From: an uncultured Dehalococcoidia bacterium
GTDB taxonomy: Bacteria; Chloroflexota; Dehalococcoidia; Lucifugimonadales; CATQGZ01
Direction of reading: 5' to 3'
Length of the DNA stretch: 64,000 bases
Assembly: GCA_958295685.2 (NCBI GenBank)
Contig: OY282365.1
Span: forward strand, 702,975-766,974
Positions within the stretch are counted from its first letter, which is position 1. The number at the start of each line of letters is the position of its first letter. The translations under genes were made by a program, and so were the position numbers. The notes under the pieces are model-generated. The model searched no databases. It was given only the letters and a program-made list of their open reading frames with translations, and was not told the DNA's origin. This document shows, piece by piece, positions 1,225-39,393 of the stretch.

Positions 1225-1338
1225 AGCGCGAGACCTGCAGCAACCGGCGCCCTGTGATAATCTACGAGCGCTTTGGAACGAGCGGGCACGACAGGCCCAC
1301 ACCCGGCCCGCCGATATTCCAACGTCCCCGGAGGTGTG

Positions 1339-2445
1339 ATGGAAAGGCCGATCTTCAAACCCATAGGCTCCCCCATTGAGGAACTCGACACCCCCGCCCT
1401 GATCGTCGACCTCGACAGGCTGGAACGCAACGTCCAGACGGTCCACTCCTTCTTCGAAGGCAGGGCCGCCGGCATCCGGCCTCGCGTGAGCGTGCACGGG
1501 TGCCCGGCGGTCGCGCATATGCAGCTGGCCGCGCCCGGCGCCGTCGGAGGAGTATCGGTCGCCACGCTCGGACAGGCCGAGGCCTTCAACGGCTCCGGCA
1601 TAGCTGACTTCTCGATCACCGCAAACGTCGTGACCGGCCAGAAGATCGCCAGGCTCTGCGCCCTAGCCCGCCGCGCCGCAGTCTCCGTGGCGGTGGACGA
1701 CGCCGCAAACGTCGCCGACCTCTCCGCGGCCGCGGCCGCCTCGGACGTCGAACTCAAGGTGCTCGTATCCATCGCCGTCAGGCCGGACCGCATGGGCGTT
1801 GACCCAGGACAGCCCGCCGTGGACCTCGCCAGGGCCATTACGGACTCCCCAGGACTCACCTTCGACGGCTTCAAGACCCACGAGGGCACGCTCGAAGTCC
1901 GGAGCGTGGCGCAGCTCGCCGAGGAGTCCCGCGCCTGGATCCGGCGCGTCCTGCAAGCGCGCGAGGCCGCCGAGGCCGCCGGAATCACCGTCAACACCGT
2001 CAGCGCCGGAGGAACATACAACTACGAGATCGCCGGAGCCGCCGACGGCGTGACCGAAGTCCCCGCAGGCTCATACGCCCTCATGGACGGCAGATACGCC
2101 GGCCAGCGGGAGGGCCTCGAACCCGCCGCCAGGGTGCTGACCACCGTCACCAGCTTCCCGGAAGACATCAAGATCATCACCGACGGCGGCAACAAGGCCA
2201 TCGGAATGGACCGCGGGAACCCGGTCGCAGACGAATTCCCAGAGGCCGCGATCGCGCTCAGCGCCGAGCACGGAAACATCGCCCTCGAAACACCCACCCG
2301 CCGCCAGGTCAACCTCGGCGACAAGCTCTGGTTCACACCCTGGGACATGGGAGTCACCGCCAACCTGTACGACTACCTGAACGCCGCGCGGAACGGCAGG
2401 CTCGAAGCGGTCTGGGACCTGCCCGCGCGCGGCCGATACCGTTGA
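1339..2445 (+). CDS. D-threonine aldolase / D-serine dehydratase-like PLP-fold protein (alanine racemase N-terminal fold), lacking the PLP lysine
   Basis: A GGAGG RBS lies just upstream of the ATG at 1339; the longest ORF starts at 1273. The N-terminus DTPALIVDLDRLERNV is typical of the D-TA/DSD1 family. The PLP-lysine motif position reads RPRVSVHG, with Ser in place of Lys. Confidence 0.7.
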   Translation: MERPIFKPIGSPIEELDTPALIVDLDRLERNVQTVHSFFEGRAAGIRPRVSVHGCPAVAHMQLAAPGAVGGVSVATLGQAEAFNGSGIADFSITANVVTGQKIARLCALARRAAVSVAVDDAANVADLSAAAAASDVELKVLVSIAVRPDRMGVDPGQPAVDLARAITDSPGLTFDGFKTHEGTLEVRSVAQLAEESRAWIRRVLQAREAAEAAGITVNTVSAGGTYNYEIAGAADGVTEVPAGSYALMDGRYAGQREGLEPAARVLTTVTSFPEDIKIITDGGNKAIGMDRGNPVADEFPEAAIALSAEHGNIALETPTRRQVNLGDKLWFTPWDMGVTANLYDYLNAARNGRLEAVWDLPARGRYR

Positions 2446-2486
2446 CCCAGACCGAAAGCCGCTGAGAACCAACGTGGAGAAAGCGA

Positions 2487-3587
2487 ATGGATAACTACCG
2501 CCCCGCCGTCGGAACCCCGATCTCGGACCTCGACACCCCCTGCCTGCTCGTCGACTTGGACGCCCTGGAAAACAACATGGCCGTGGTCGCCGAAACATAC
2601 CGCGGCACCGCCTGCAAGATGAGGCAGCACACGAAGAACATCAAGAGCCCCCGCATCGCCAACATGCAGATCCAAGCGGGCGGCACCCTCAACGGCGTGT
2701 GCACCGCCAAGCTGTCCGAAGCCGAGGTGATGGTCGAGGGCGGCATCACGGACGTCCTGATACCCAATCAGATCGTCACCAGAGAGAAGCTCGCCAGGCT
2801 GGCCGCCCTCGCCAGACAGGGCGACGTCAAAGTCACGGTCGACAACGCCGAAAACGTCGAGACGATCTCAGAAGTCGCAGCCGAGAACGGCGTCGAGATC
2901 GGCGTCCTGATCGAGGTCGATACCCAGATGCGCAGAGGCGGCGTGCGCAGCCCCGAGCACGGAGTCGTCCTCGCAAAGCTCGCCAGGGAACTGCCCGGCG
3001 TCAGGTTCAGGGGCGTCATGAGCCACCAGTCCGCAGGAGGACGGCCCGACGCCGACGAGAGGCTCAGAATCGCCGAGGAGCACATCGGAATCTGTCTGGA
3101 GGTCAAGGACGCCATAGAAGCCGAGGGCATCCCGGTGGAAATGGTGTCGAGCGGCGAGACCTTCTCATACGCCGCCGCCACGCTGATACCGGGCGTCACA
3201 GAGGTGGAGGGCGGAAGCTACGCCCTCATGGGCAACACCTACGGCTACCTCGACGAGTTCCAGATCGCCAACAAGGTGCTCTCCACCATCGTAAGCGTCC
3301 CACGCCCCGACGTCGGCATCGGCGACGTCGGAATGAAGGCCCTCTCGACGGCCGCCGTCACCAACGCCACGATCGAGGGCATACCGGGCGTGACCATCGA
3401 AGAGGTCCAGGACGAGCACATTGTCCTGCGCTCCGACGGAAGCGCGCCCCTGAAGGTCGGCCGGCAGTTCATGCTGCTGCCCGGCTACCAGGACCACCTC
3501 ATAAACCGCTTCGACCAGTACATCGCCGTTCGCGGCGGCGCCGTCGAACAGGTCTGGGACATACCCGGCCGGGGCTGCCACCACTGA
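2487..3587 (+). CDS. D-threonine aldolase / D-serine dehydratase-like PLP enzyme
   Basis: DTPCLLVDLDALENNM is followed by RQHTKNIKSP, which retains the Lys of the RPHxKTHK motif. It is a tandem paralogue of 1339..2445. Confidence 0.75.
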   Translation: MDNYRPAVGTPISDLDTPCLLVDLDALENNMAVVAETYRGTACKMRQHTKNIKSPRIANMQIQAGGTLNGVCTAKLSEAEVMVEGGITDVLIPNQIVTREKLARLAALARQGDVKVTVDNAENVETISEVAAENGVEIGVLIEVDTQMRRGGVRSPEHGVVLAKLARELPGVRFRGVMSHQSAGGRPDADERLRIAEEHIGICLEVKDAIEAEGIPVEMVSSGETFSYAAATLIPGVTEVEGGSYALMGNTYGYLDEFQIANKVLSTIVSVPRPDVGIGDVGMKALSTAAVTNATIEGIPGVTIEEVQDEHIVLRSDGSAPLKVGRQFMLLPGYQDHLINRFDQYIAVRGGAVEQVWDIPGRGCHH

Positions 3588-5343: not shown

Positions 5344-6636
5344 CTACCACAACCTCATCGAATCGGCGAAGAGCCGCCTGAGCTCCGGTTCGCCCACCGG
5401 ACGCGGGGACAGCTTCAACACCCGGTGCTGCGGCAGAGCGCCGGCCACCAGTCCGTCTAGGTCGTCATTCGAGTATCCGACCCCCTCGAGCCCGTTCGGC
5501 ATATCCAGCTGGCGCATCAGCGCGATGATCGCGTCGGCCAGCAGGTCGCCCGCGTCCTCCGGACCGGCGCCGGACACGTCCGCGCCCATCAGCCGCGCAG
5601 CGAGCAGGTGGCGCGCCGGATTCGTCGGCGCGGTGAACCGGAAGACGGCAGGGGCGTTGAGCACTACGGACATCCCGTGAGGGCACATCGACACCCCTGT
5701 GGGGTAGCCCTCCACAGTGAAGTCCAGCCCGTGCGCCATTCCCGAGACGGGATACGACATGCCGTGAGGCAGGTGACAGCCCGCGTTGCCGAAGCCGATT
5801 CCGGCGAAGGTTGCCGCTAGGAGCATCTCGCTCCGTGCCTCGGCATCTTCAGTATCGTTGGAGGCCCGCGTCAGATTCCCGGACACCATCTCGACGGCCC
5901 TCGTCGCCCAGACGTCGCTGATCGGGTTCGATCCCTGGTAGGCAGGCCGGAGCAGCGGGGTCTCCGGCGCTTCCCGGTCGCGGAACGGAAGGGCGGTGAA
6001 CGACTCGAGGGCATGACTCAGCACGTCGAACCCGCTGCTGGCCGCCACCATCCGAGGGAGCGTGCGCGTGTTGTCCGGGTCGACGACCCCGACATTCGGA
6101 CGCAGCATCCTGTGCGCGATCCCCGTCTTGGTCTTCATCTCCGTATAGTCGAAGATGGCCACGCCGGTGGTCTCGCTGCCGGTTCCTGCCGTCGTCGGAA
6201 CGGCTATCAGAGGCTTCAGAGGCCCCGGGACCGGCAGCCCGCGCCCTACAGGGGCGTTGACGTAGTCGAGGAAGTCGGCCGGGTGGGTGGCGTAGAGGTC
6301 GGCAGCCTTGGCCGTGTCCATGCTGGAGCCGCCCCCAACGGCGACGTACCCGTCGAACCCTCCGGCAATCGCGAAGGCTATCGCTTCCTTGAACGAGGCG
6401 TCCGTGGGCTCGACGCGCGCCTGGTCGAAGAGGACTGCGTCGATACCCTCGCCGCGCAGAGAGCCGATAGCGGTCGATACTGGCTCGCTGTCGGAGAGGT
6501 CCGGGTCGGTGACAACCATCACGCGGCTTGCGCCGAGTCGGCGAGCCTCGAAGCCCACTTCACGGGTCACGCCCGACCCGAACTTGATGCTCGACGTGTC
6601 GATAGAGAATGCGGTCTCGAGCCTGCGCTCGGTCAT
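5344..6636 (-). CDS. iron-containing alcohol dehydrogenase family (hydroxyacid-oxoacid transhydrogenase-like)
   Basis: GGGSSMDTAKA and the length (430 aa) fit the Fe-ADH family. Confidence 0.8.
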   Translation of the reverse strand: MTERRLETAFSIDTSSIKFGSGVTREVGFEARRLGASRVMVVTDPDLSDSEPVSTAIGSLRGEGIDAVLFDQARVEPTDASFKEAIAFAIAGGFDGYVAVGGGSSMDTAKAADLYATHPADFLDYVNAPVGRGLPVPGPLKPLIAVPTTAGTGSETTGVAIFDYTEMKTKTGIAHRMLRPNVGVVDPDNTRTLPRMVAASSGFDVLSHALESFTALPFRDREAPETPLLRPAYQGSNPISDVWATRAVEMVSGNLTRASNDTEDAEARSEMLLAATFAGIGFGNAGCHLPHGMSYPVSGMAHGLDFTVEGYPTGVSMCPHGMSVVLNAPAVFRFTAPTNPARHLLAARLMGADVSGAGPEDAGDLLADAIIALMRQLDMPNGLEGVGYSNDDLDGLVAGALPQHRVLKLSPRPVGEPELRRLFADSMRLW

Positions 6637-6643
6637 CGCCTCG

Positions 6644-7474
6644 CTATCTCGCCGCTGCCGCTGCCAGGGAGTCCCTGGCTTTCTGCGCTACTGCGGAATA
6701 CTCCTCCAGCACGGCGCTGCTGTTCAGCACCGTCGGCCTGGACGTGTCACGGTAGTCGCCGCGCAACTCGATGCGGCCCAGGAACTTCAGGCCCATCTCG
6801 CCGGCCAGGTCCTCGCCGGCCCCGGAGCCGAATACGCCGCCCGACAGGTTCTCGACGACGCCCAAAACGCTGAGATTCAGCTTGCGGATCATGTTGATAG
6901 AGCGCTTAGCGTCCACCTTGGCCAGCTCCTGGGGCGTGGTCACCACCACGAAGCCGTCGAGCTCCAGGCTCTGCATCACAGTCAGGGGTGAATCCGAAGT
7001 GCCCGGGGGCAGGTCTACGATAAGGTAGTCCAGCTCGCCCCAGTCGGTCGACTGGAGGAGCTGATTGATCGCGTTGTGAACCATTGGGCCGCGCCAGATG
7101 ATGGCCTCATCCTCATTCTCCTGGAAGAAGCCCATGGACATGACTTTCACTCCGAACTGCTCGGACGGGATTATCTTGCGGTCGTCCGTAGCAGTCGGGC
7201 GCCGGGCGACTTTCATGGCACGGACGACGTTGGGGCAGTCTATGTCCACGTCGAGTATCCCGACGCGCTCGCCCTCCTGCGCCAGCGTGACGGCGAGGTT
7301 CACCGCGACGGTGGTCTTGCCGACACCGCCCTTGCCGCTGTAGACGCCTATCTTATGGGTTATCCTGGACAGGGCTTCGGCAATGTTGCGCTTCTGCTCG
7401 AACTGGCGCTTCATCGCCTCGATCTTGGCGCGCGCCTGGGCGGCCTGCGGATTGCCGGGCTGCGGATGAGTCAT
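6644..7474 (-). CDS. apbC: Mrp/NBP35 (ApbC) family Fe-S cluster carrier ATPase
   Basis: The deviant Walker A motif GKGGVGKTTVAVNLA and the motif DLPPGTSD are present. Confidence 0.85.
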   Translation of the reverse strand: MTHPQPGNPQAAQARAKIEAMKRQFEQKRNIAEALSRITHKIGVYSGKGGVGKTTVAVNLAVTLAQEGERVGILDVDIDCPNVVRAMKVARRPTATDDRKIIPSEQFGVKVMSMGFFQENEDEAIIWRGPMVHNAINQLLQSTDWGELDYLIVDLPPGTSDSPLTVMQSLELDGFVVVTTPQELAKVDAKRSINMIRKLNLSVLGVVENLSGGVFGSGAGEDLAGEMGLKFLGRIELRGDYRDTSRPTVLNSSAVLEEYSAVAQKARDSLAAAAAR

Positions 7475-15199: not shown

Positions 15200-15276
15200 T
15201 GGCGACCCCGACCGGATTCGAACCGGCGATCTCTGCCTTGACAGGGCAGTATGTTAAACCGCTACACCACGGGGCC
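15200..15276 (-). tRNA. tRNA-Asp (GTC)
   Basis: The reverse complement is GGCCCCGTGGTGTAGCGGTTTAACATACTGCCCTGTCAAGGCAGAGATCGCCGGTTCGAATCCGGTCGGGGTCGCCA. It folds as a cloverleaf with anticodon loop CTGTCAA, a TTCGAAT T-loop and an encoded CCA. Confidence 0.9.
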
Positions 15277-15352
15277 GCGAGGGGGAGAACTTTGTGTCCA
15301 GGGTTCCAGCCGGAGGGCGCGCCGCCGTCACGCCGAGCGGCGCGGTCGGCGC

Positions 15353-15589
15353 CTAGATGGACTGAAGAGCGGCATCCAGTTTCGGCGGGCTGTAGCCCAC
15401 GATCCGCTCATTCCCGATCACCGTAACCGGCGTCGTGCGGTAGCCCATGCCGACCAGGCGCTTGACCGCCTCCGGGTCCATAGACACGTTGTACTCGGTG
15501 AAGGAGACACCCTTTCGTGAAAGATACACTTTCACCATGTGGCAGGGGCCTCAGCCAGTGGACGTATAGACTTGTATCTCGTTTTCCAT
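15353..15589 (-). CDS. glutaredoxin/NrdH (YruB)-like selenoprotein, active site U-G-P-C
   Basis: The ATG at 15589 has a GGAG RBS 7 nt upstream. The product reads MENEIQVYTSTG-[TGA 15551-15553]-GPCHMVKVYLSRKGVSFTEYNV…TTPVTVIGNERIVGYSPPKLDAAL. The in-frame TGA falls exactly at the first Cys of the CxxC motif of small glutaredoxin-like proteins (…VYT.xWCPPCxxxKxxL…). A hairpin lies 15 nt downstream. Confidence 0.75.
15517..15535 (-). promoter_or_regulatory. candidate SECIS-like hairpin downstream of the Grx-like UGA
   Basis: GUGAAAG-UGUAU-CUUUCAC is a perfect 7-bp stem starting 15 nt 3' of the UGA. Confidence 0.35.
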
Positions 15590-15678
15590 AACACACTCCA
15601 TGTCTCATTATAGACGGCGGGGGCTTCCGGGCGATAGGGCCGGGGCCGCCCCGCCGGGTCGTCTTGATCAGGCCGGGC

Positions 15679-16113
15679 TCACGCGCCGCCTCCGGCCTCC
15701 CTTCGCTTTTTGAGGTTGTGTTCCTTCTTGCCGCCTGTGTCTTCGAACAGCTCTCGTCCGACAGGCACCGCCTTGTCGATGGTCTGAACCGCCTCCCCTT
15801 CCTCCTGGTACTTGCGAAGAAACTCTTCGCTCACGAAGAACATTCATATACAGAACCCGTCGCGCTCGATGTCCTCGTGGTGCCTCTCGCAGGGGCATAT
15901 CTTCTTGCGGTCCTCGACGGGATCGCCGCTGAGCGGCATTCAGGGACAGTATCTATAGCCATGTATCCTCTCGTTGTCGCCCAAGCCCTCCTGGACGACG
16001 CGGACCACGTCCTGCTCGGGGAAGAACTCGTACGGCCCCCTGTCCACGTAGCGTTCCGAGAACTTCACGGCTCTGTCGAATGCTTCCTCGGGTGTCAGCT
16101 TGCGTTTGTTCAT
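15679..16113 (-). CDS. ferredoxin:thioredoxin reductase catalytic-subunit-like selenoprotein with two in-frame UGA codons
   Basis: The ATG at 16113 has a GAGGTG RBS; a GTG at 16122 is also possible. The translation reads …VVQEGLGDNERIHGYRYCP-[TGA 15940-15942]-MPLSGDPVEDRKKICPCERHHEDIERDGFCI-[TGA 15844-15846]-MFFVSEEF…, ending at the TGA at 15679-15681. This reproduces the FTRc CPC…CPC…CHC(MLF) pattern as CPU…CPC…CIU(MFF). Confidence 0.75.
15925..15937 (-). promoter_or_regulatory. small hairpin immediately 3' of the first FTR-like UGA (SECIS candidate)
   Basis: GCCGC-UCA-GCGGC starts 2 nt after the UGA. A comparable hairpin, UCUUCG-UGAG-CGAAGA, lies at 15824-15839 after the second UGA. Confidence 0.3.
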
Positions 16114-16118
16114 GCCGC

Positions 16119-16364
16119 TCACCTCGGCGCCGCCCGTCCCATTCTGAATTGCCGATGGGCATCGCAGGACATCCTGGAGAACGAGTCGGCCTGAGTTTCG
16201 ATTCGCTGCGCCAGAGTGGGCAGGACTGCCTCGATCTCCCCGAGGGTCTTATCGCCGCCCACTTCTACGCTGAGGAGGGCGGAGGTTCCACACTCGCAGC
16301 CTGCCTTGAAGAAGACTTTGCGGAATCCGGGGTTGGCGGACAGGTCCAGCTTGAAGCCGGGCAT
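16119..16364 (-). CDS. hypothetical small protein upstream of the FTR-like gene (start uncertain)
   Basis: The ORF reads MPGFKLDLSANPGFRKVFFKAGCECGTSALLSVEV…SCDAHRQFRMG. Its stop lies 5 nt before the FTR-like ATG. The frame stays open up to the tRNA-Val gene, and GTG/TTG starts are possible up to about 16507. I recognise no family. Confidence 0.4.
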   Translation of the reverse strand: MPGFKLDLSANPGFRKVFFKAGCECGTSALLSVEVGGDKTLGEIEAVLPTLAQRIETQADSFSRMSCDAHRQFRMGRAAPR

Positions 16365-16514
16365 TGCAACTAGGTCTGTCCTGTGCAGGACGGCGCCTGC
16401 TATGAGCGCGTGGAGCTCGTCGTCTCCGGGCACCTCGCCACTCACAGCCACCGCCTGGTTCGGCGCGAAGTCATCTCGAGGCAATGGGGCTCCCCCTGCG
16501 ACCGTCGTCACTCG

Positions 16515-16591
16515 TGGTGGGCGGTACTGGATTTGAACCAATGACCTCTGCGATGTCAACGCAGCGCTCTGAACCACTGAGCTAACCGCCC
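16515..16591 (-). tRNA. tRNA-Val (GAC)
   Basis: The reverse complement is GGGCGGTTAGCTCAGTGGTTCAGAGCGCTGCGTTGACATCGCAGAGGTCATTGGTTCAAATCCAGTACCGCCCACCA. The anticodon loop is TTGACAT and the CCA is encoded. Confidence 0.92.
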
Positions 16592-16609: not shown

Positions 16610-16639
16610 AGTTTAGCAAGCCACTTCCCAACGGGTCAA
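16610..16639 (-). promoter_or_regulatory. candidate tRNA-Val promoter TTGACC-18 nt-TAAACT
   Basis: In reverse complement, 16634-16639 reads TTGACC and 16610-16615 reads TAAACT. The -10 box ends 18 nt before the tRNA 5' end. Confidence 0.45.
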
Positions 16640-30709: not shown

Positions 30710-33700
30710 TCACTCGACGCGGAAGACTTTGAGCACCTCGTCGCCGAGGTGGTTGATGACTTTGACAGCGATGCGGCCTGAGGCGGGTTTGTGGAATGGG
30801 CGGGAGACGGCGCTGTGGAGGGTTGCCCAGGCGTCGGCGTCGATCTCGGCTTTGAGGGTGGTCCTCAGCGACTTGTACGGATCGCTGGCTCCCAGGAAGT
30901 AGGCGTGTCGTACGAAGAAGGCCTCTTCGTTGTAGTCGGTATCGATGAACCAGCAGGCGATGCCCTCCGGCCCGTCGCTGCGCACCTCGCCAGTGTTTGG
31001 GTGGAAGACGTCTACGCCGTGGACGGTTACCTGTGACCAGTGGTCAGTGGAGAGTGGAGAGTGGAGAGTGACTTCATCAGCCCGTTCAGCATCCTGTTTA
31101 TCTCGGCGCAGCTGAGCAACAAGCTCTCGGAAGCCTCTCTCGATGCCAGTTCCAGCCTTTCGCACAAGGTCAGAAACGTTTCGAGTTCCGCCAGCGAGCC
31201 CCGCGCAACGCCAAGCGAGTTGAGAAACTCCCCCGTCGTCCTCCTTGCCTGCCCTTCCGCTATGTTCGCGGGTATCGAGGACGCCGCGCGCCGCATCTGC
31301 GAGGTAATCCCAAATCTCTCTTCGGCAGGAAAGCTCCGAGTAAGCGTGTATATCCTCACTGTCAAGTCGATTGATTTCTGCCAGACTATCAAGTCCCGAT
31401 ACGAGCTTAAAGATCTCATAGGGTGCAACTCGCCTGTCTGAATTGTCCACCAACCACTCTTCACTGGCCACTGTGATGTCCGGCTCTCCGAATATGACGA
31501 ACAGGTTGCCTTTGCCGGTGTTCTTGAGGTCGTCGGCCATGTGGAGGTCGGCGTTCATGCGCGCCTTGAGCACTGGGACGCGGCCCAGGCTTTCGAATTC
31601 GGTGGTGTGGGCCTCGTAGTTGAAGGCGCAGGCGATCAGGAGGTCGAACCCGCCGTCGGCGGCCTCGCGGGCGGCCTGCACGAGGTCCGGGCGGGAGACC
31701 GTGCCGAACTCGGGGCCGATGAAGACCGCGGCGCGGCGCCGGACGCCGTCTTCCTCGCCGCCCTCCGGGTACCAGCCCTCGGCGCACACCAGCCGGCCAG
31801 GCCAGTGGGAGAGCGAGGTGAATTCGATCCGGTCTTCCCTGTGGGCCTGCTGGACGCCCGCGCGCTTCAGGTTGTCGAGGATGACCTGCGTGAAGTCGTA
31901 CTCGCTGCCGTAGCCGTTGGCCTGCTCCGCGATGACGTCGCCGTTCTCGTCGACTCCCAGGACGCGGTGGGGCGAGACGCTCTCGACGGTGAAGGGGCCT
32001 GCGACGCGGACCTTGCCCCTGTCCTCGTAGGGCTTGTCGTAGAGGTATTCGTGGTCGGCGCGGGCGGCTATGGATGCGTCTATGCGCTTTTGGCGGGCGA
32101 TGCGGGCCTTCCACCACTGGGCGTGGGCGTCCCTGGCGTCCTGGGGCCAGCCCTCGTCGGCTTCGCGTGGGACTTCCCACTCCTCCCAGCCTGCGCCGAG
32201 GGCCGAGTTCAGCCGCTCGCGCAGCGGCTCCAGCTTCTGCTGGAACGACTCCCATATGACGTCGATCTCCGCGTTGTTGGCGATGGCGCGCAGGGTGACG
32301 TGGGGGACGCGCTCGTAGACGAAGCCCTGCCTGACGTCACCGTAAGCGGCGGCCTGAGAGGGCGACCTGTGGGCGACTTCCGCCTCCTTGCGCTGCCCCT
32401 CGGGGCTGTCGGCCAGCAGGTAGTACGGGTACCGCGCGCCCATGACGCGGGCGCGGGCCAGGGCGAGGGCGACGCGGGAGGTGTCGATGGTTATCCAGCG
32501 GCGGCCCCACTGCTCGGCGACGTATGCGGTGGTGCCGCTGCCGCAGGTGGGGTCCAGCACGAGGTCGCCGGGGTCGGTGGTCATGAGGATGCAGCGTTGG
32601 ATGACCTTGGTTGAAGTTTGGACAACGTACCTTTTATCGCTAGCAAATCCTGCTATAACTGTGTCAGCCCATAGATTCGACAACTTCTTTGCCGCAAAAT
32701 CATCAACTTTCCGAACGTAATACAACTTCCTAGAAGTCTTGGCAATGCGATTGGCCTTCTTGAGATTTTCCATCCCCTCCTCATTAGTTTTCCAGCTCCC
32801 TCTGTCGATAGGAAAAGTCTGGCCACAAAACTCGACATCAAAGCGACCAGTTACGCCTCCACTTTGGCTTACCAGGTTATCATAGCGATACACGCTAGAG
32901 CTTTTGGGAATCTCAACAGTCCCTTCCCTTTCTTCCTTGGTCAACGGTCTATGTTGAAGGTCATCGGTGACGAGCATCCGGTAAGCATTGTCACCTCCAT
33001 CGTAATTACTCTTTTCAACTAGCGGCTCACGATATTTGATGGAATCGTGGTTCTTGGCGAACCAAATTATGTAGTCGCTGGCTTTATCAAGTAGTTCGTT
33101 TCCAAGGCCTGATGTTGTGACATAGCTGATCAGGCTTACAAAATTCTTATCCCCGAACACCTCGTCCATCAGTGCACGGACGCGGTGGACGTTCTCGTCT
33201 CCGATCTGCACGAAGATGGAGCCGGAGTCGGCGAGCAGGTCACGCGCCACGGTCAGGCGGTCGCGCAGGTAGGTCAGGTAGGAGTGGATGTTGTCGCGCC
33301 AGGTGTCTCGGAAGGCCCTCACCTGCTCCGGCTCGCGGGTTATGTGGTCGCGGTTGCCGTCGCGCACGTCGCGGCTGGTGGTGGACCACTGGAAGTTGGA
33401 GTTGAACTTGATGCCGTAGGGCGGGTCCAGGTAGACGCACTGGACTTTGCCACGCAGCCCTTCGCGCTCGGCGAGGGATGCCATGACCTGGAGGCTGTCG
33501 CCGAGGATCATGCGGTTGGACCAGTTGGCGTCGTGCTGGTAGAACTCGGTCTTGGCGTTCTCGGACGGGAGGCCGTTGAAGTCGGCGAACAGGTCTGCGA
33601 ACCCCTGCTGCGGGTTTTCACTCTCCGGCCCGCGCTGTTCCGCGGTGCGGCGCATCAGGTCGTCGACGAGGACTTTCGGGTGCAGCCGCTCCTGTACGTA

Positions 33701-33931
33701 GAGAGGCGGGGCGTCGACCACGAGGTCGGATGAGTCCAGTTCGTCCTTGCCGCGCCAGACGAGCTGGGGGTCGAGGTCGCGGCTGCGGCGCTGGTAGGCG
33801 AGCCTTATGGGGCTGCGCTCGTCCTCCCGCATGAGCGGCTGGTGCTCGGCGGAGGGGAGGTTCCTGCGCCGGGCCTCCTCGTGTGTGAGGGTCTCGACGG
33901 ACTTTGGCTGTTTGGCTCGCTCTCTTGGCAT
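30710..33931 (-). CDS. mod: Type III-like DNA methyltransferase (Mod; beta-class N6A/N4C) carrying an internal ~145-codon insertion
   Basis: A GGAGG RBS precedes the ATG at 33931; the longest ORF starts at 33973. Motif IV (VYLDPPYGIKFNS) comes before motif I (LDPTCGSGTTAYVAEQWGRRWITID). A G+C-poor central TRD spans about 32600-33160. The conserved C-terminal region GNLFVIFGEPDITV//VTVHGVDVFHPNTGE is interrupted at 31038-31473. Confidence 0.85.
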   Translation of the reverse strand: MPRERAKQPKSVETLTHEEARRRNLPSAEHQPLMREDERSPIRLAYQRRSRDLDPQLVWRGKDELDSSDLVVDAPPLYVQERLHPKVLVDDLMRRTAEQRGPESENPQQGFADLFADFNGLPSENAKTEFYQHDANWSNRMILGDSLQVMASLAEREGLRGKVQCVYLDPPYGIKFNSNFQWSTTSRDVRDGNRDHITREPEQVRAFRDTWRDNIHSYLTYLRDRLTVARDLLADSGSIFVQIGDENVHRVRALMDEVFGDKNFVSLISYVTTSGLGNELLDKASDYIIWFAKNHDSIKYREPLVEKSNYDGGDNAYRMLVTDDLQHRPLTKEEREGTVEIPKSSSVYRYDNLVSQSGGVTGRFDVEFCGQTFPIDRGSWKTNEEGMENLKKANRIAKTSRKLYYVRKVDDFAAKKLSNLWADTVIAGFASDKRYVVQTSTKVIQRCILMTTDPGDLVLDPTCGSGTTAYVAEQWGRRWITIDTSRVALALARARVMGARYPYYLLADSPEGQRKEAEVAHRSPSQAAAYGDVRQGFVYERVPHVTLRAIANNAEIDVIWESFQQKLEPLRERLNSALGAGWEEWEVPREADEGWPQDARDAHAQWWKARIARQKRIDASIAARADHEYLYDKPYEDRGKVRVAGPFTVESVSPHRVLGVDENGDVIAEQANGYGSEYDFTQVILDNLKRAGVQQAHREDRIEFTSLSHWPGRLVCAEGWYPEGGEEDGVRRRAAVFIGPEFGTVSRPDLVQAAREAADGGFDLLIACAFNYEAHTTEFESLGRVPVLKARMNADLHMADDLKNTGKGNLFVIFGEPDITVASEEWLVDNSDRRVAPYEIFKLVSGLDSLAEINRLDSEDIHAYSELSCRREIWDYLADAARGVLDTREHSGRAGKEDDGGVSQLAWRCAGLAGGTRNVSDLVRKAGTGIERGFRELVAQLRRDKQDAERADEVTLHSPLSTDHWSQVTVHGVDVFHPNTGEVRSDGPEGIACWFIDTDYNEEAFFVRHAYFLGASDPYKSLRTTLKAEIDADAWATLHSAVSRPFHKPASGRIAVKVINHLGDEVLKVFRVE
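31027..31419 (-). CDS. four-helix-bundle protein (23S rRNA intervening-sequence protein family) nested in the mod ORF in another frame
   Basis: MRSLSSYRDLIVWQKSIDLTVRIYTLTRSFPAEERFGITSQMRRAASSIPANIAEGQARRTTGEFLNSLGVARGSLAELETFL is the characteristic signature of the four-helix-bundle family. It is on the same strand as mod with a frame offset of 1. The longest ORF starts at 31464. Confidence 0.8.
   Translation of the reverse strand: MRSLSSYRDLIVWQKSIDLTVRIYTLTRSFPAEERFGITSQMRRAASSIPANIAEGQARRTTGEFLNSLGVARGSLAELETFLTLCERLELASREASESLLLSCAEINRMLNGLMKSLSTLHSPLTTGHR
31038..31473 (-). mobile_element. inserted cassette carrying the four-helix-bundle gene, bounded by 12-nt inverted repeats
   Basis: The plus strand reads cagtggtcagtg at 31038-31049 and cactggccactg at 31462-31473. 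These are inverted repeats matching at 11 of 12 positions. A GTGGAGA x3 tract lies at 31049-31069. G+C content is lower than in the flanks. The 13-mer CCACTGACCACTG also occurs in R1 (763-775). Confidence 0.45.
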
Positions 33932-33936
33932 GGGGG

Positions 33937-34377
33937 TCAGGCCTCCGTTGCGGGGTGAATGTTCCTGACGCATCTGGCGATCACGTCGCCCATGAGCTGC
34001 GCCTCCGGCGCGCTGCCCGGAGGCAGCCCCAGGATTTCACTGTGTGACGGATCGGCTTCGAATTCGGCATCCGCGTCCAAGGGGCTGTGAACGAAGCGAA
34101 TGCCATCGAGGCCGCCGCCGATGCGTTCCCGCGTCTCCCCTACGTTCAACTCGGCAAACCGGTGAGAGTGTCTCAGAGTCAGTCGAATCAGGCGTCTGAC
34201 CTCATTCAGTTGCTGGGACTTCGACTGGCCCCTGAAGCAATCGAGCCAGTTGACGGAGAGGCCCTGTTCCCCGTCCTTGAGCAGGAAAGCGGAGCCGTCC
34301 AATCTTCCGTCACGGATCTGGGTCTGTTTGGCATGGCGAACTACGCTGTCTTCGTTGGGCAGGTCGCGCCCGGTCAC
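33937..34377 (-). CDS. hypothetical protein (146 aa) immediately upstream of mod
   Basis: The GTG start at 34377 overlaps the upstream stop (GTGA). The product reads VTGRDLPNEDSVVRHAKQTQIRDGRLDGSAFLLKDGEQGLSVNWLDCFRG…. The stop lies 5 nt before the mod ATG. The longer ORF to 34554 overlaps the upstream gene. Confidence 0.6.
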   Translation of the reverse strand: MTGRDLPNEDSVVRHAKQTQIRDGRLDGSAFLLKDGEQGLSVNWLDCFRGQSKSQQLNEVRRLIRLTLRHSHRFAELNVGETRERIGGGLDGIRFVHSPLDADAEFEADPSHSEILGLPPGSAPEAQLMGDVIARCVRNIHPATEA

Positions 34378-34940
34378 CGGTTCACCAGAGGCGTGAGGTC
34401 GAACTTGTGGATCCGTTCCTTCATCCCATCCAGAGTGTCCGTTCCCGCAAGGCGTTGGACTTGTCTGCCGGCCTGCTGCTTGAAGATCACGAACGTTATC
34501 GACCCGCCGCCGAGGAAGTGGAGGCCGAGATGATCCTCCCCGTCGCCGTCCCACACGGCACGGAGGTCTCCGTTATCCATCGCCACCAGCCCCGCGCGGC
34601 GGGTAAAGCCGGCCGACTTCATGAACTTCCAGAAGTCCGCTTCAGAGGCCTGGCTGATGGTGAATCCTTCCTCTGCGGCGTATGTTCGAAGCTCGTCGAT
34701 ACGGAGCTCGTAGGCGAGCCGGATGCTTGCACGTTCGGCAGACTCTGCTAAGAAACTGAGTGTGTCAGATAAAATCTTCGGCGTAGTATTCAGGATGACT
34801 CTATACGTGTGTCTGCTTGAAATATCCGTGTGCAATGGCACGTCTGAGTCATCACTAACCGGATTATAGATAGGAGGCGATTCACGCTCGCGTGGCCGGA
34901 GGCGGGGCTCTGTGAGAGCCGTGGATGCCGTCATGGTCAT
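34374..34940 (-). CDS. hypothetical protein (188 aa)
   Basis: The ATG overlaps the stop of the TIGR04255-like gene (ATGA). The region encoding the N-terminus is G+C-poor. I recognise no family. Confidence 0.6.
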   Translation of the reverse strand: MTMTASTALTEPRLRPRERESPPIYNPVSDDSDVPLHTDISSRHTYRVILNTTPKILSDTLSFLAESAERASIRLAYELRIDELRTYAAEEGFTISQASEADFWKFMKSAGFTRRAGLVAMDNGDLRAVWDGDGEDHLGLHFLGGGSITFVIFKQQAGRQVQRLAGTDTLDGMKERIHKFDLTPLVNR

Positions 34941-35734
34941 TGTGGTTCCTCTGTCAGCTTCCAGTGTTCACGCTGAATGTTCGAGTCCGTTATGCGCACA
35001 AAGGAATCAATGATGTGGTCGTGTGCGCGCTCAAACCACTTGTCTGCCACGGACTTCGCAGCCAATTCGAGTGGTCCACCCACTTTGATCTCGAAAACCA
35101 GCATCGGGTTGTCCGGCTTCTCTGTGGCCGGTCCGCTTCGGATCGCTATACCCACCCCAAGGTCGGCTTCAATCCTGTATCCGTATTGGCAATTGAACTC
35201 CGAAGGCATAGCGACGTCGGCATCACGTAACGGAGTCGAGAACGCTGGGATTATCCTGGCGGTGTCATCCGGCCCATCCCAGAACTGGCATCTCTCTATG
35301 GTGTTGACATAGGTGAGTTCGCACATGCCGATGGAGGGCCTGGGCAGATTGACTTCGGTTCGGACGAATTCGTCGAAGAGACCGTAGTACCTGTCGAAGG
35401 TAGGTTTGATGTCTCTATGGAACCGGGGGTACTTCTGTGACTTTCGGCGGCGCCAATTGAGTATGAAGGCACTCTTCTCAACTTGAATGACGTATGTGTC
35501 ATCTTCAGAGACGAACCAGTATCTGGGCATTGGGAACATCTCGTTAGAGACCGCATCCGTTGCAGGCGCCAGTGGAGGGACCAGTGGTGGTTGTTGCCGC
35601 ACGACGGGGAATTCGCGTTTTATCTTCTCCCAGAACAGGCCAACGTGCTCGCTGCGGAAGTCGTTCAGGTGTGGATTGAAGTATGCGGCTATAGCTACTT
35701 CGTTTATCGGCGGATTCTCGAAGGCTATGGGCAT
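34937..35734 (-). CDS. TIGR04255-like uncharacterised protein (265 aa)
   Basis: The N-terminus (MPIAFENPPINEVAIAAYF) and the length resemble the TIGR04255 conserved-hypothetical family as I remember it. The gene is G+C-poor. Confidence 0.55.
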   Translation of the reverse strand: MPIAFENPPINEVAIAAYFNPHLNDFRSEHVGLFWEKIKREFPVVRQQPPLVPPLAPATDAVSNEMFPMPRYWFVSEDDTYVIQVEKSAFILNWRRRKSQKYPRFHRDIKPTFDRYYGLFDEFVRTEVNLPRPSIGMCELTYVNTIERCQFWDGPDDTARIIPAFSTPLRDADVAMPSEFNCQYGYRIEADLGVGIAIRSGPATEKPDNPMLVFEIKVGGPLELAAKSVADKWFERAHDHIIDSFVRITDSNIQREHWKLTEEPQ

Positions 35735-35781
35735 CTTGCCGTCTCAGCGTTCCCTTCTTTGCTCAGCGTGCGCCATGCGCC

Positions 35782-36054
35782 TTAGTCATAGACTGGCCTG
35801 TACTGTACTGAAGCAGGCAGGTTTATCGGCGGCGCCCCTACCCGCCTTATCAGGTACGGGCCGCGCCCGAATCGGTGGACAGCGTCCTGGGCGGCCTCCT
35901 CAAACGATTCGTACGCGCCCACCAGCTTCCCACCGTGAAAGACTACCCACGTGCCGAAGTGGTCGGTCTCCAGGACATCGCGCATCTCTTCATACGCCGC
36001 TATCTGACTGCTGAGTGTGGCCACGGCGTCATTCTCCATGTTCACCTCACGCAT
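35782..36054 (-). CDS. small DUF5678-like protein (start uncertain)
   Basis: The sequence reads …HFGTWVVFHGGKLVGAYESFEEAAQDAVHRFGRGPYLIRRVG…. Possible starts are a GTG at 36066, an ATG at 36054 (after GGGAGG) and an ATG at 36039 (after GAGGTG). Confidence 0.55.
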   Translation of the reverse strand: MREVNMENDAVATLSSQIAAYEEMRDVLETDHFGTWVVFHGGKLVGAYESFEEAAQDAVHRFGRGPYLIRRVGAPPINLPASVQYRPVYD

Positions 36055-36124
36055 CGAGCCTCCCACATATGGGTATTAAGTATAGACAACCAGCCATCGG
36101 GGTCAAGCTCTTGGAGGGCAACCA

Positions 36125-39100
36125 TCACTTGATGCCGCGCGTAGGCTCTCGCGGTCCAGCCAGCGCCTCTGTGATCAGGTTGTCGAACCCGGTCTCGATG
36201 CCGTAGACGTCCGTGAACTCGGCGAAGGCCCAGCGGCCGTGCTGTCGAAGGTTGTTCACGCCTGGGATCCAGTGGGTCTCGATGGCGAGCTTCTTCATCT
36301 TGGCATCCTGTCTGCGGTAGCCCTTTATCTCCACGACGAGATTGAGCGGGTCGTCTTGGCCGTGTCCGTCGTCGACCTGGACGATGAAGTCGGGGACGTA
36401 GGCGCGGGTGTCGGAGCCGGAGCGGTATGGGACCTCGAGCCCCAGGTTGTGGTTCTTCACGTATGCCCTCACCCTGGGGTGAGCCTCGGCCACGCGGCAG
36501 AATTCGGCCTCCCAGTCGCTGTCGAGGACGATCCAGTTCACGTGGCACTTGCGGGAGTCCGTCTGCCATCGGCCGGTCTTGGACGTGCCGAAGTTCACGT
36601 GCGCGGTGGAGCCGGTCGGGTTGAACGAATCGAGCAGGGCCTTGACGGGATAGCTGCTGGCGCTGCTGCTGCTGACGATGGCGGCGGTGATGATCTCGCA
36701 GGCCGTGTTCGCCAGGCGATGGTACCTGAGTTGGGCCGGATGGGTTCCGCCCGTGCAGACGAGGTAGCCATCGAGCCACTGGCTGACGATTCCCTTCAGC
36801 CTGCCGAAGAGGTGGAGCTTGGGGTCTTCGTTGGAATCGCGCCACTTGGTTTCGAGAAGGTGCTTGGTCAGATGGAATGCCACTGCGGCGCGCCTCGTGC
36901 CGTCAAGGTGGTCCACGTTCAGATCGGCTCCCTCGCCGATGATGCCCTCGACCCTGGTCTTCGTGGGGCCGACCAGTTCCGGCGTCAGTTCCAGGTATGA
37001 GTCGTCGGTGAACTTCGCCGCGAGCTCCTCCCTGGGCGGGTCGACGCGGTAGCCGGATACCCTGGGGAACCGTATTTCGAGGCGGTCTCTGTCGGGCCTG
37101 ACGGCCCTGACCTGAACGGTTTGGCGGGGGGGCTGAGGCTTTACGACGACCGGCCTCGCGGTGAAGTCGAAGGGCACGCCGAGCACGTCGGCGTACTCGA
37201 CGTCGAACAGGTCGTCGTCGTTGAGGTCGTAGGACTGGCGGCGCAGGGCGCGTCCGACGACCTGTTCGCACAGGAGCTGGGTGCCGAAGGCTCGCACGCC
37301 GAGAACGTGGGTGACGGTGTTGGCGTCCCAGCCCTCGGTGAGCATGGAGACCGACACGACGCAACGGATGGACTGCCCGAGGCGTCCCGCCTTGCCCACG
37401 GTGTTCATCACCTCTCTGAGAAGGTCCTGGTCGGAGATGGCTTTGGCCTCGCGGGCGTCGCCTGTGCGCTCCACCCTCTCCCTGCGGAAGCGGTCGATTT
37501 CGTCGGCGGACATCTTGCGGAAGTTCTTGTCCAGGGCGTTGCCGGACTCGAGCTGCTCGCTGTCTATCAGCACGGTGCGGGGCACCGGGAGCGGGCTGCC
37601 GTGGTCGTCGAAGTTTCGGAACAGGGCGAGGCGCCCCTGCTCCAGAGTTCTGGAGCCGTCGTCGTTCTCACGGTGGAAGCCGGAGACGTAGTCGTAGACC
37701 AGCTTGGAGGTGGAGGTGTTGTTGCATACCACTATGAAGCAGGGCGGGACGGTGATCCCGGCGTTGTGCCAAGTCTCGTGGGTCTTCTCGTAGTGTCCAT
37801 AGAGGGCGTCCAGGGCGGTCTGAAGCTGCGGCGGCAGGCTGAGCGGGTCGAGGTCTCCTTTGGTCTTGCCTCGTCCACTCTTCGGCATGTCCTTGCGGAT
37901 GTTTTCCCAGAGGGCGCGGTACTTGGGCATGTCGCCGCCTGGGATGTTGTCGGCCACCGGGACGCGCGGGAGCTTGACGATGCCGCACTCGATGGCGTCC
38001 ATGAGCGAGAAGTCGCTCACGGTCCAGGGGAACAGGGTGCCCTCGGCGTAGCCGGAGCCTCTCAGGAAGAAGGGGGTGGCCGAGAGGTCGACGACCTGCC
38101 TCAGGCCGATCCTGCGCTTGACGATTTCGAGGCCCGATATCCAGACGCGGGCAGCCTCGTTGTTCCTGTCGGCCTCTTTCCTGTCGTCGCCCCTCAGGAC
38201 GGCCTCGTCGTCGGCCTCGCCCGGCTTACGGCGGTAGCAGTGGTGTCCTTCGTCGTTCAGCACCCATACGTCTTTCATGCCCATGAGGTCGGGCATGACG
38301 CGCTGGATCATCTGGCCCTCGGTCTCCATCGTCTTCAGCTCGGGACCCCTGCCCTGAAGAAGAGCGCGGTTGCCGCCGGAAAGCTCCATGCGGTCACGCA
38401 GCCTGAGCGCGTGGTAGTTGGTGATGACGATCCTGGCGCGGTCGAGGTCGCCGAGCATGTCCCTGGGCACGAGTTCTCTGCTGGCGTAGTAGCTGTCGGG
38501 GTCGTTGGGTTGAAGCACGCGCAGCCGGTCTTTGATGGTGATGCCCGGAGCGACTATCAGGAAGCCCCTCGTGAATCGGCTGCTGGCGGGGCGCCGGACG
38601 GCGTTGACGGTCTGCCACGCGATGATCATGGCCATGACGGTGGTCTTGCCGGCGCCGGTGGCCAGCTTCAGGGCCAGGCGCGACAGCTCTGGGTTGGCGT
38701 CGTTGTTGGCGTTGGCGAGGCGTTCGAGGAGACGCCTTCCGACCTGCCCCGACTTGGGCGCAACCTCGGTGAGCCATATGGCCGTCTCGACCGCCTCCAC
38801 CTGACAGAAGAAGGGTCGGATGCCGCTGAAGTCATGATGCCGCCAGTGCCGGAGCAGGCGCGCGGTTTCGGGCGTGACGCGCCAGTCGTTGGGATTGCTC
38901 AGGCCTCTCCACCGGTCGACGTGACGGCGAATCTCGTTCACCATTGCGGTCACGTCGTACTGCTGCTCCTGGGTCGACAGCCCCTTGCCCTCGTCGATGA
39001 CGAACTGCTGCTGATCCCTTGCAGCCTTGCTCTTCCTGGGCTTCGGTATGGGAGTGATGAACTCCGCGCCGCGCCGGTTGTCGATGATCCGCTGGGTCGG

Positions 39101-39199
39101 CTGACCCTGGTCATCGAGCTCCCAGTGCCTCATCGGGTACTCGTAGGGAGGGTTGAGTATGGGTTGTTCGAAGAAGCGATTTTCCACGAGAGACCTCAT
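36125..39199 (-). CDS. res: Type III-like restriction enzyme Res subunit (SF2 helicase with a C-terminal PD-(D/E)xK nuclease)
   Basis: The N-terminus MRSLVENRFFEQPILNPPYEYP is typical of this res family; the longest ORF starts at 39268. Helicase motifs present are I (LATGAGKTTVMA), II (VLNDEGHHCY) and VI (TEGWDANTVTHVLGVRAFGTQLLCEQVVGRALRR). The C-terminus reads VPDFIVQV…LVVEIKGY. Confidence 0.85.
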   Translation of the reverse strand: MRSLVENRFFEQPILNPPYEYPMRHWELDDQGQPTQRIIDNRRGAEFITPIPKPRKSKAARDQQQFVIDEGKGLSTQEQQYDVTAMVNEIRRHVDRWRGLSNPNDWRVTPETARLLRHWRHHDFSGIRPFFCQVEAVETAIWLTEVAPKSGQVGRRLLERLANANNDANPELSRLALKLATGAGKTTVMAMIIAWQTVNAVRRPASSRFTRGFLIVAPGITIKDRLRVLQPNDPDSYYASRELVPRDMLGDLDRARIVITNYHALRLRDRMELSGGNRALLQGRGPELKTMETEGQMIQRVMPDLMGMKDVWVLNDEGHHCYRRKPGEADDEAVLRGDDRKEADRNNEAARVWISGLEIVKRRIGLRQVVDLSATPFFLRGSGYAEGTLFPWTVSDFSLMDAIECGIVKLPRVPVADNIPGGDMPKYRALWENIRKDMPKSGRGKTKGDLDPLSLPPQLQTALDALYGHYEKTHETWHNAGITVPPCFIVVCNNTSTSKLVYDYVSGFHRENDDGSRTLEQGRLALFRNFDDHGSPLPVPRTVLIDSEQLESGNALDKNFRKMSADEIDRFRRERVERTGDAREAKAISDQDLLREVMNTVGKAGRLGQSIRCVVSVSMLTEGWDANTVTHVLGVRAFGTQLLCEQVVGRALRRQSYDLNDDDLFDVEYADVLGVPFDFTARPVVVKPQPPRQTVQVRAVRPDRDRLEIRFPRVSGYRVDPPREELAAKFTDDSYLELTPELVGPTKTRVEGIIGEGADLNVDHLDGTRRAAVAFHLTKHLLETKWRDSNEDPKLHLFGRLKGIVSQWLDGYLVCTGGTHPAQLRYHRLANTACEIITAAIVSSSSASSYPVKALLDSFNPTGSTAHVNFGTSKTGRWQTDSRKCHVNWIVLDSDWEAEFCRVAEAHPRVRAYVKNHNLGLEVPYRSGSDTRAYVPDFIVQVDDGHGQDDPLNLVVEIKGYRRQDAKMKKLAIETHWIPGVNNLRQHGRWAFAEFTDVYGIETGFDNLITEALAGPREPTRGIK

Positions 39200-39393
39200 A
39201 GATTTCCAGCCGGCGTCAAGACGGCTGCAGGGTGACGGCACCATATTGTAGCCCGTCTCCCATGGCATGTGACAAGCCTGACGCTCACCATCAGGTGCCG
39301 GAGCTTGTGCCGCCTCCGTCCCTGGTCGGACGGCCTCTGCCCTGCTGTGGGCGCAATCCGTTATAGTGAGTAGTCAGACTGGGGTAAGGAGGG

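Follow-up and report, generated by a model that had tools for sequence, protein, structure and literature searches.

In ferredoxin:thioredoxin reductase (FTR), a [4Fe-4S] cluster is bound by four Cys residues, namely the two of motif 2 and the first one each of motifs 1 and 3, and the active disulfide (Cys57-Cys87 in Synechocystis numbering) lies next to the cluster (PMC2398784). A homologue of the FTR catalytic subunit with two selenocysteine (Sec, U) residues was reported by Zhang and Gladyshev in 2008 as a new selenoprotein family in Global Ocean Sampling (GOS) reads (PLoS Genet 4:e1000095, PMC2398784). Selenocysteine insertion sequence (SECIS) elements were drawn in that report, which was based on 2 short reads and gave neither genomic context nor taxonomy (PMC2398784). 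A Sec-containing FTR family is listed in a 2022 review (PMC9312934), and the family is listed with NF041072 and 2 Sec in a 2026 review (PMC13188914). Here we describe an ftrB-type gene with two in-frame TGA codons in a stretch of 64,000 nucleotides of contig OY282365.1 (assembly GCA_958295685.2, positions 702,975 to 766,974); this whole 64-kb stretch is called the window. The locus very probably encodes a true selenoprotein that belongs to the FtrB/FDR family and comes from a Dehalococcoidia-type member of the Chloroflexota, with both UGA codons decoded as Sec and with the relay mechanism proposed below. The identification as a double-Sec FtrB gene is correct but already known, as the family was predicted in 2008 and is curated by NCBI.

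The window gene is a member of NF041072 and of the 2008 GOS family, with which it shares two Sec residues at the redox-active Cys positions, one hairpin per UGA, and a marine/aquatic, uncultured source. Compared with the 2008 report, the family extends here to at least 80 genomes of the Chloroflexota, has both predicted Sec residues in every case, and is located in a conserved module of three genes and three predicted Sec residues. The module consists of a CxC…CxxH protein, FtrB (U58, U90), and a redoxin with a UGPC active site.

The best sequence match of the FtrB product to a solved structure is PDB entry 4tpu, deposited as "Rubredoxin" (E value of 5.3e-12), which we regard as FDR, the FTR-like enzyme of Methanosarcina that has a rubredoxin domain fused to it. 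The window protein and the Methanosarcina FDR have in common the CPC…CPC…CxC scaffold and a residue other than His in motif 3 (Tyr in FDR and Ile here). FDR has no variable subunit, and in the window module no gene for one was noted. They differ in that FDR has Cys at both redox positions and a fused C-terminal rubredoxin, whereas the window FtrB has predicted Sec at both positions, no rubredoxin, a separate co-conserved CxC…CxxH protein, and a selenoprotein redoxin. The Methanosarcina FDR is reportedly the subject of papers by Kumar et al. and by Wei et al., both of 2015, the latter of which, judged by its title, is said to deal with FDR and an NrdH-like redoxin. FDR-type enzymes reduce atypical thioredoxins (PMC6262447) and feed electrons to a class III ribonucleotide reductase with a glutaredoxin-like NrdH reductant (PMC9176816). 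FDR works with an atypical thioredoxin or an NrdH-like redoxin (PMC6262447), and the window FtrB is likewise linked to a redoxin, in this case by gene adjacency.

With classical FTR (PDB entries 1dj7, 2pvo, and 7bzk), the window protein shares the FeThRed_B domain, the four Cys residues for the [4Fe-4S] cluster, and a redox pair at the Cys57/Cys87 positions. The sequence similarity to classical FTR is weak, however, the His of the CHC motif is replaced by Ile, and both disulfide Cys residues are replaced by predicted Sec. The host also differs in being a nonphotosynthetic heterotroph, and a variable-subunit gene was not noted in the module. Two other selenoprotein systems can be compared from the titles of the papers. 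SelL, reportedly described by Shchedrina et al. in PNAS in 2007, is said to have a Sec-Sec pair in the UxxU motif of a thioredoxin fold and no metal cluster. Both proteins have two Sec residues positioned to form a diselenide, but the pair in the window protein is 32 residues apart and, by homology, would lie against a [4Fe-4S] cluster. Tandem use of Sec in a Grx/MsrA pair, reportedly described by Kim et al. in Mol Microbiol in 2011, resembles the present case in that reductase and partner alike contain Sec.

The ftrB-type gene and its redox-center residues

The minus strand of the window was read directly over positions 15679 to 16122. The frame reads …GYRYCP-TGA-MPLSGDPVEDRKKICPCERHHEDIERDGFCI-TGA-MFFVSEEFLRKYQ… and ends at a TGA stop at 15681 to 15679; the sequence after the second in-frame TGA begins MFFVSEEF…. 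This direct reading bore out the open frame across both TGA codons that the first-pass annotation of the window had described. The first codon (UGA 1, 15940 to 15942, minus strand) corresponds to predicted Sec58 and replaces the second Cys of the first CPC motif, and the second (UGA 2, 15844 to 15846, minus strand) corresponds to predicted Sec90 and replaces the second Cys of the CHC/CYC motif, which is C-I-U here.

The start of the gene is most likely the ATG at 16113 to 16111 (MNKRKL…) and not the GTG at 16122, because homologues begin at the equivalent Met, because a GAGGTGA Shine-Dalgarno sequence is present upstream, and because the GTG overlaps the TGA stop of the preceding gene (16121 to 16119). 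The annotated extent was therefore right at its stop end (15679), but its upstream end at 16122 and the product of 147 amino acids (aa) are replaced by the start at 16113 and a product of 144 aa. With the open frame, the profile matches, the structure alignments, and the homologue-backed ATG, the gene is placed at 15679 to 16113 on the minus strand and encodes an FTR/FDR-like [4Fe-4S] protein.

For the profile searches, Cys was put in for both Sec residues. The Cys-substituted 144-aa product matched Pfam PF02943 (FeThRed_B) with 78.3 bits against a cut-off of 22 (E value of 5.4e-22). It also matched the NCBIfam equivalog NF041072, "FtrB family double-selenoprotein," with 219.1 bits against a cut-off of 160 (E value of 9.5e-66), residues 5 to 124 of the protein aligning with profile positions 2 to 121 of 121. 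A score above the cut-off and UGA codons at the two redox-active Cys positions, the two features of the NF041072 family, are thus both present. Beyond residue ~125, the tail shows little conservation and many K, R, and E residues. Neither the Pfam nor the NCBIfam scan of the 144-aa product detected a rubredoxin domain. The FeThRed_A variable subunit was encoded by neither of the two neighboring genes in the same kinds of scans, which covered part of the window open reading frames (ORFs).

Besides 4tpu, the product matched FTR subunit B in PDB entry 7pwe (E value of 5e-10) and, with E values from 3.2e-5 to 1.2e-3, the classical chloroplast/cyanobacterial FTR catalytic chains in 7bzk, 2pvd, and 1dj7. 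By sequence, the FtrB product is nearer to the archaeal FDR type than to plant/cyanobacterial FTR. In the alignments with 4tpu, 7pwe, and 7bzk, residue 58 lines up with the second Cys in the first CPC motif, and residues 88 and 90 line up with the first and second Cys of the CHC/CYC motif, respectively. Residues 73 and 75 align with the second CPC motif of the solved FTR/FDR structures. The solved homologues carry Cys at both TGA positions. These alignments agree with the claim that the TGA codons occupy exactly the two disulfide positions and that the four ligand Cys residues are kept.

The third motif is C-I-U in the window protein, and Ile, or rarely Leu, stands at the His position throughout the family. 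The replacement of the catalytic His by Ile, which the first-pass annotation had also pointed out, was thus seen. In 4tpu and 7pwe, Tyr stands at the position of the classical FTR catalytic His (CYC where the window protein has CIU). The missing His is a trait of the whole FDR-like branch and is not special to this gene.

Conservation of the in-frame TGA codons

Relatives were collected in a scan of one genome per species (GTDB), in which 198 genomes had a relative, and the best 80 of these 198 were taken. Unless stated otherwise, comparative counts (n = 81) refer to these best 80 loci plus the window. The best 80 relatives all belonged to the Chloroflexota and were nearly all labeled Dehalococcoidia or SAR202. 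Their identity ranged from 65 to 89%, and the window was placed in the Dehalococcoidia/SAR202 lineage because its closest relative (L001) was 89% identical.

The codon at both ftrB positions was TGA in 81/81 sequences. The predicted cluster ligands C56, C73, C75, and C88 were invariant. The protein was strongly conserved before, between, and after the two TGA codons, and the invariant residues downstream of the UGA codons included MPLSGDPVEDRKKICPC… and MFFVSEEFLR…. Outside the hairpins described below, synonymous sites varied freely in all three segments of ftrB. After the second TGA, for instance, Tyr was encoded by TAC in 49 cases and by TAT in 27, and Gly and Thr were each encoded by four codons. 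Conserved amino acids together with free synonymous variation indicate that the whole frame is under selection as a protein.

A metagenomic relative (L081) has a single-Sec form of the protein, in which site 1 is Cys and TGA is confined to site 2 (CPC … CI-U). Its ftrB-type gene is located at 397 to 834 on the plus strand of that sequence. The neighboring gene, at 913 to 1056 on the minus strand, encodes a 47-aa desulforedoxin-like protein (Pfam Desulfoferrod_N) and not a UGPC redoxin.

Public proteins P0001 to P0009 are full-length homologues with Trp at both Sec positions, and other homologues are kept as fragments in public protein collections. Both the fragments and the Trp forms are artifacts. 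The Trp residues are best explained as a gene-calling artifact, in which a TGA-sense code was applied to short contigs and the selenoprotein was hidden.

Conserved hairpins downstream of the TGA codons

Pairing in the hairpins past UGA 1 was scored over 67 distinct sequences, and codons were analyzed over all 81. Synonymous variation in ftrB collapsed in two short blocks only, each located 13 nucleotides (nt) past its TGA. The first block forms SECIS-like hairpin 1 (15907 to 15926, minus strand; GCGAUCC-CGUCGA-GGACCGC), at nt 17 to 36 counted from the U of UGA 1, with a stem of 7 bp and a GU-containing loop of 6 nt. Its consensus among the relatives is GCGAUCC-NGUNGA-GGAUCGC, and 96.6% of its cells were paired. 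The codons GGC (76/81), GAT (80/81), GAG (81/81), and CGC (69/81) were fixed or nearly so, while third positions in the loop were free.

The second block forms SECIS-like hairpin 2 (15814 to 15830, minus strand; GCGAAGA-GUU-UCUUCGC), at nt 17 to 33 from the U of UGA 2, with a 7-bp stem and a GUU loop. It is the minimum free energy (MFE) element in single-sequence folding, and 99.3% of its cells were paired. Its fixed codons were AGC (77/81), GAA (75/81), GAG (81/81), TTT (77/81), and CGC (71/79), and its Leu codon was CTT in 81/81 sequences despite sixfold degeneracy. A compensatory change from C-G to U-A was found in two genomes (L047 and L053); the remaining changes were G·U wobbles, and at the loop-closing pair 3 cells were unpaired. 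Both ftrB hairpins combine a 7-bp stem with GU in the apical loop and the same spacing from their UGA, which is the geometry expected of a bacterial SECIS element, as in Escherichia coli fdhF and the bSECISearch model.

The short hairpin that had been noted after each TGA was therefore found in part. Conserved hairpins are present at nt 17 to 36 and nt 17 to 33, but the hairpin directly after TGA 1 (GCCGC-UCA-GCGGC) was rejected as not conserved, its central pair being unpaired in 43 of the 67 distinct sequences. A proximal hairpin after TGA 2 (nt 7 to 13 with nt 18 to 24) was 99.8% paired. It was dismissed as independent evidence because any codon choice for F-F-V-S-E-E yields it and because it excludes the distal hairpin. 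Positions 15814 to 15840 (minus strand) can thus form two mutually exclusive hairpins past UGA 2, of which the distal one (nt 17 to 33) is under synonymous constraint. A ribosome standing on UGA 2 would open the proximal hairpin and so make the distal one available, which makes the pair a candidate switch. An Rfam search of 15300 to 16200 at gathering and permissive thresholds yielded no SECIS or other RNA family, with only chance-level hits and the two flanking tRNAs.

A linked redoxin gene and a conserved Cys/His protein

Directly downstream of ftrB, at 15353 to 15589 on the minus strand, is a gene for a glutaredoxin/NrdH-like redoxin of 78 aa with the predicted active site U13-G-P-C16. The third UGA (15551 to 15553, minus strand) corresponds to predicted Sec13 at the first position of the UxxC active site and was TGA in 79/79 loci. 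The product matched Pfam Glutaredoxin (E value of 2.8e-15), and its YruB and NrdH family scores in NCBIfam were under the cut-offs. Among PDB entries, it is nearest to small proteins of the Grx and NrdH types, and Sec13 falls on the first Cys of the CxxC motif in 7c10.

A TGA-bearing redoxin homologue adjoined ftrB in 79/81 loci, usually directly downstream and in ~9 loci divergently upstream. SECIS-like hairpin 3 (15517 to 15535, minus strand; GUGAAAG-UGUAU-CUUUCAC) lies at nt 19 to 37 from the U of UGA 3. It is the MFE element, with a z score of -2.4, and the consensus of the relatives is GUGAAAG-UGUAY-CUUUCAC. Its codons GTG (74/74), GTG (71/71), CTT (73/73), and TCA (74/75) were fixed or almost fixed, and a compensatory change from G-C to U-A was found in one relative (L021). 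By homology and gene linkage, the UGPC redoxin probably serves FtrB as a redox partner or substrate.

On the other side of ftrB, at 16119 to 16433 on the minus strand, is a gene for an uncharacterized protein of 104 aa with the motifs C46-x-C48 and C90-x-x-H93, whose TGA stop precedes the ATG of ftrB by 5 nt. This gene was found directly upstream of ftrB on the same strand in 78/81 loci, and C46, C48, C90, and H93 were invariant among the homologues. The 104-aa protein matched no Pfam or NCBIfam family, and 47/47 database homologues were unnamed or "hypothetical." A confident AlphaFold2 model with a predicted local distance difference test (pLDDT) score of 88.8 consists of a helix, a β-hairpin, and further helices. 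The model gave no significant match in a fold search of the PDB (best E value of 0.1 and TM score of 0.3). The protein could be an electron-entry module, a metal-binding partner, or a target.

The functional unit may be the three-gene, three-Sec module as a whole, although this is put forward tentatively. The module would act as an all-selenium relay that is driven by ferredoxin and restricted to marine Dehalococcoidia/SAR202. The CxC…CxxH protein would be a new metal-binding partner in it, either as an electron-entry module that replaces the rubredoxin of FDR or as a dedicated target. No description of the three-gene module was found in the searchable literature; a mention in database records is possible.

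The module is flanked in the window by tRNA-Asp (15200 to 15276, minus strand) and tRNA-Val (16515 to 16591, minus strand), which were present in 46/80 and 25/80 related loci, respectively. A sigma-70-like promoter match was found just upstream of tRNA-Val, at 16639 to 16610.

Proposed mechanism and alternative explanations

Both UGA codons of ftrB would be decoded as Sec by the standard bacterial route, in which SelB·GTP·Sec-tRNA(Sec) is recruited by an mRNA hairpin. Each UGA would be served by its own 7-bp GU-loop hairpin past a 13-nt spacer. In the proposed reaction, a low-potential one-electron donor (ferredoxin or similar) would first reduce the [4Fe-4S] cluster on C56, C73, C75, and C88. 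The cluster would then cleave the adjacent U58-U90 diselenide, or an Se-S bond in single-Sec relatives, leaving Sec90 transiently bonded to the cluster. Sec58 would next attack the oxidized UGPC redoxin to give an Se-Se or Se-S mixed intermediate. A second electron would resolve this intermediate and free the reduced redoxin. Electrons would thus pass from ferredoxin to [4Fe-4S]/U58-U90, to the U13xxC16 redoxin, and on to targets. We infer these steps by going beyond the family membership, the conservation of the UGA codons and SECIS-like hairpins, and the gene linkage.

Several points weigh against this assignment. Neither selA, selB, and selD nor tRNA-Sec was found in the 64-kb window or in the 80 related loci of ~12 kb each, where ARAGORN was run on both the window and the loci and Pfam was run on 20 large ORFs, and the Sec machinery of the source genome is assumed. 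No proteomic, 75Se, or biochemical study of any family member was found in the searchable literature. The diselenide, the electron donor, and the partnership with the redoxin are proposed from homology and gene linkage. Hairpin 1 of the window has one mid-stem A·C mismatch, which is due to GAC in place of GAU and is common to 13 of the 67 distinct sequences. Covariation in the ftrB hairpins is sparse because the hairpins are almost invariant. Single-sequence folding of the 60 nt past each ftrB UGA gave z scores of -1.4 and -0.8, like those of shuffled controls, and the SECIS case at these two sites therefore rests on the comparative data.

It is improbable, though worth weighing, that both UGA codons encode Sec but that no diselenide forms or that the neighboring redoxin is not the partner. 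One of the Sec residues might permanently ligate the cluster or a metal, the substrate might be a small-molecule disulfide, a polysulfide, or a selenium compound, or the CxC…CxxH protein might be the real partner. Such a function would fit the absence of the classical FTR catalytic His (C-I-U), the co-conservation of the Cys/His-rich upstream protein in 78/81 loci, and the varied, partly unknown substrates of FDR-type enzymes (PMC6262447). It would also fit the single-Sec relative L081, where the adjoining gene is desulforedoxin-like. On the other hand, the homologous Cys pair in the FTR/FDR structures is the active disulfide by the cluster (PMC2398784). The redoxin is, moreover, linked to ftrB in 79/81 loci and has its predicted Sec at the nucleophilic position, which fits a relay by Se-Se/Se-S exchange.

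Reassignment of TGA to a standard amino acid, which would place Trp or Gly instead of Sec at both positions, is hardly plausible. The Trp residues in P0001 to P0009 could be read in its favor, and some pipelines did apply a TGA-sense code to these contigs. However, TGA terminates 19 of the 32 long high-GC3 ORFs in the window (GC3, GC content at third codon positions), where it is the commonest stop codon, and it also terminates the gene directly upstream of ftrB, 5 nt before its start. This confirmed the view of the first-pass annotation that TGA is an ordinary stop in the window. A GC3-based screen for further in-frame TGA readthrough turned up nothing beyond the FtrB sites except gene boundaries and antisense frames. 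In the solved homologues, both sites correspond to catalytic Cys and not to Trp or Gly, and L081 has Cys at site 1. A reassigned codon, finally, would need none of the conserved hairpins that lie at a fixed distance past each TGA.

A broken gene that yields no full-length protein (a pseudogene, an assembly or sequencing error, or three small ORFs) would agree with the pieces of 60, 31, and 54 aa into which the mechanical ORF list and standard ORF calling divide the region and with the lack of Sec machinery in the window, but it is effectively refuted by the conservation of the same TGA codons and of the protein in 80 independent genomes obtained in many different studies and on many sequencing platforms, by purifying selection at the protein level on all three segments, by splits that fall exactly at the two redox-active Cys positions, and by the existence of a curated family model (NF041072).

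By the comparative standards usual for selenoproteins, a pseudogene and an assembly error are thus excluded by the sequence data, as is codon reassignment. The assignment of Sec to both positions of the FTR-like protein, as first annotated, is supported by NF041072, the structure alignments, and the conserved TGA codons and hairpins, and it is not new, having been made for the family in 2008.

Other features of the window

ARAGORN called a tRNA-Gln at 6181 to 6255 (minus strand), which scored below the Rfam tRNA gathering score and lies inside a long high-GC3 ORF (5344 to 6687). The downstream part of this ORF matches an Fe-alcohol-dehydrogenase C-terminal domain. The tRNA-Gln call is probably a false positive.

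At 30713 to 39373 (minus strand), a lower-GC3 stretch at ~34 to 36 kb is enclosed by genes for a large DNA methylase (N6_N4_Mtase, 1108 aa) and for a helicase/restriction subunit of the ResIII type (1082 aa). This region is possibly an acquired restriction-modification island. Two tandem paralogues at 1261 to 3584 (plus strand) each have an Ala_racemase_N and a D-serine-dehydratase-like domain.

Significance

A diselenide against a [4Fe-4S] cluster would be unusual chemistry. It should have a much lower potential than the FTR disulfide and provide a much more reactive nucleophile, and its one-electron intermediate would require an Fe-Se bond. The family has been known as a bioinformatic prediction since 2008. 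To this, the present analysis adds the uniform presence of both predicted Sec residues across at least 80 Chloroflexota species, conserved SECIS-like hairpins with identical spacing, and the affinity to FDR. It also adds a three-gene module with a likely partner redoxin and an uncharacterized Cys/His protein, which is a modest lead and offers a testable set of three proteins. The family is confirmed in a long, well-assembled context and is widespread in Dehalococcoidia/SAR202, an abundant deep-ocean lineage.

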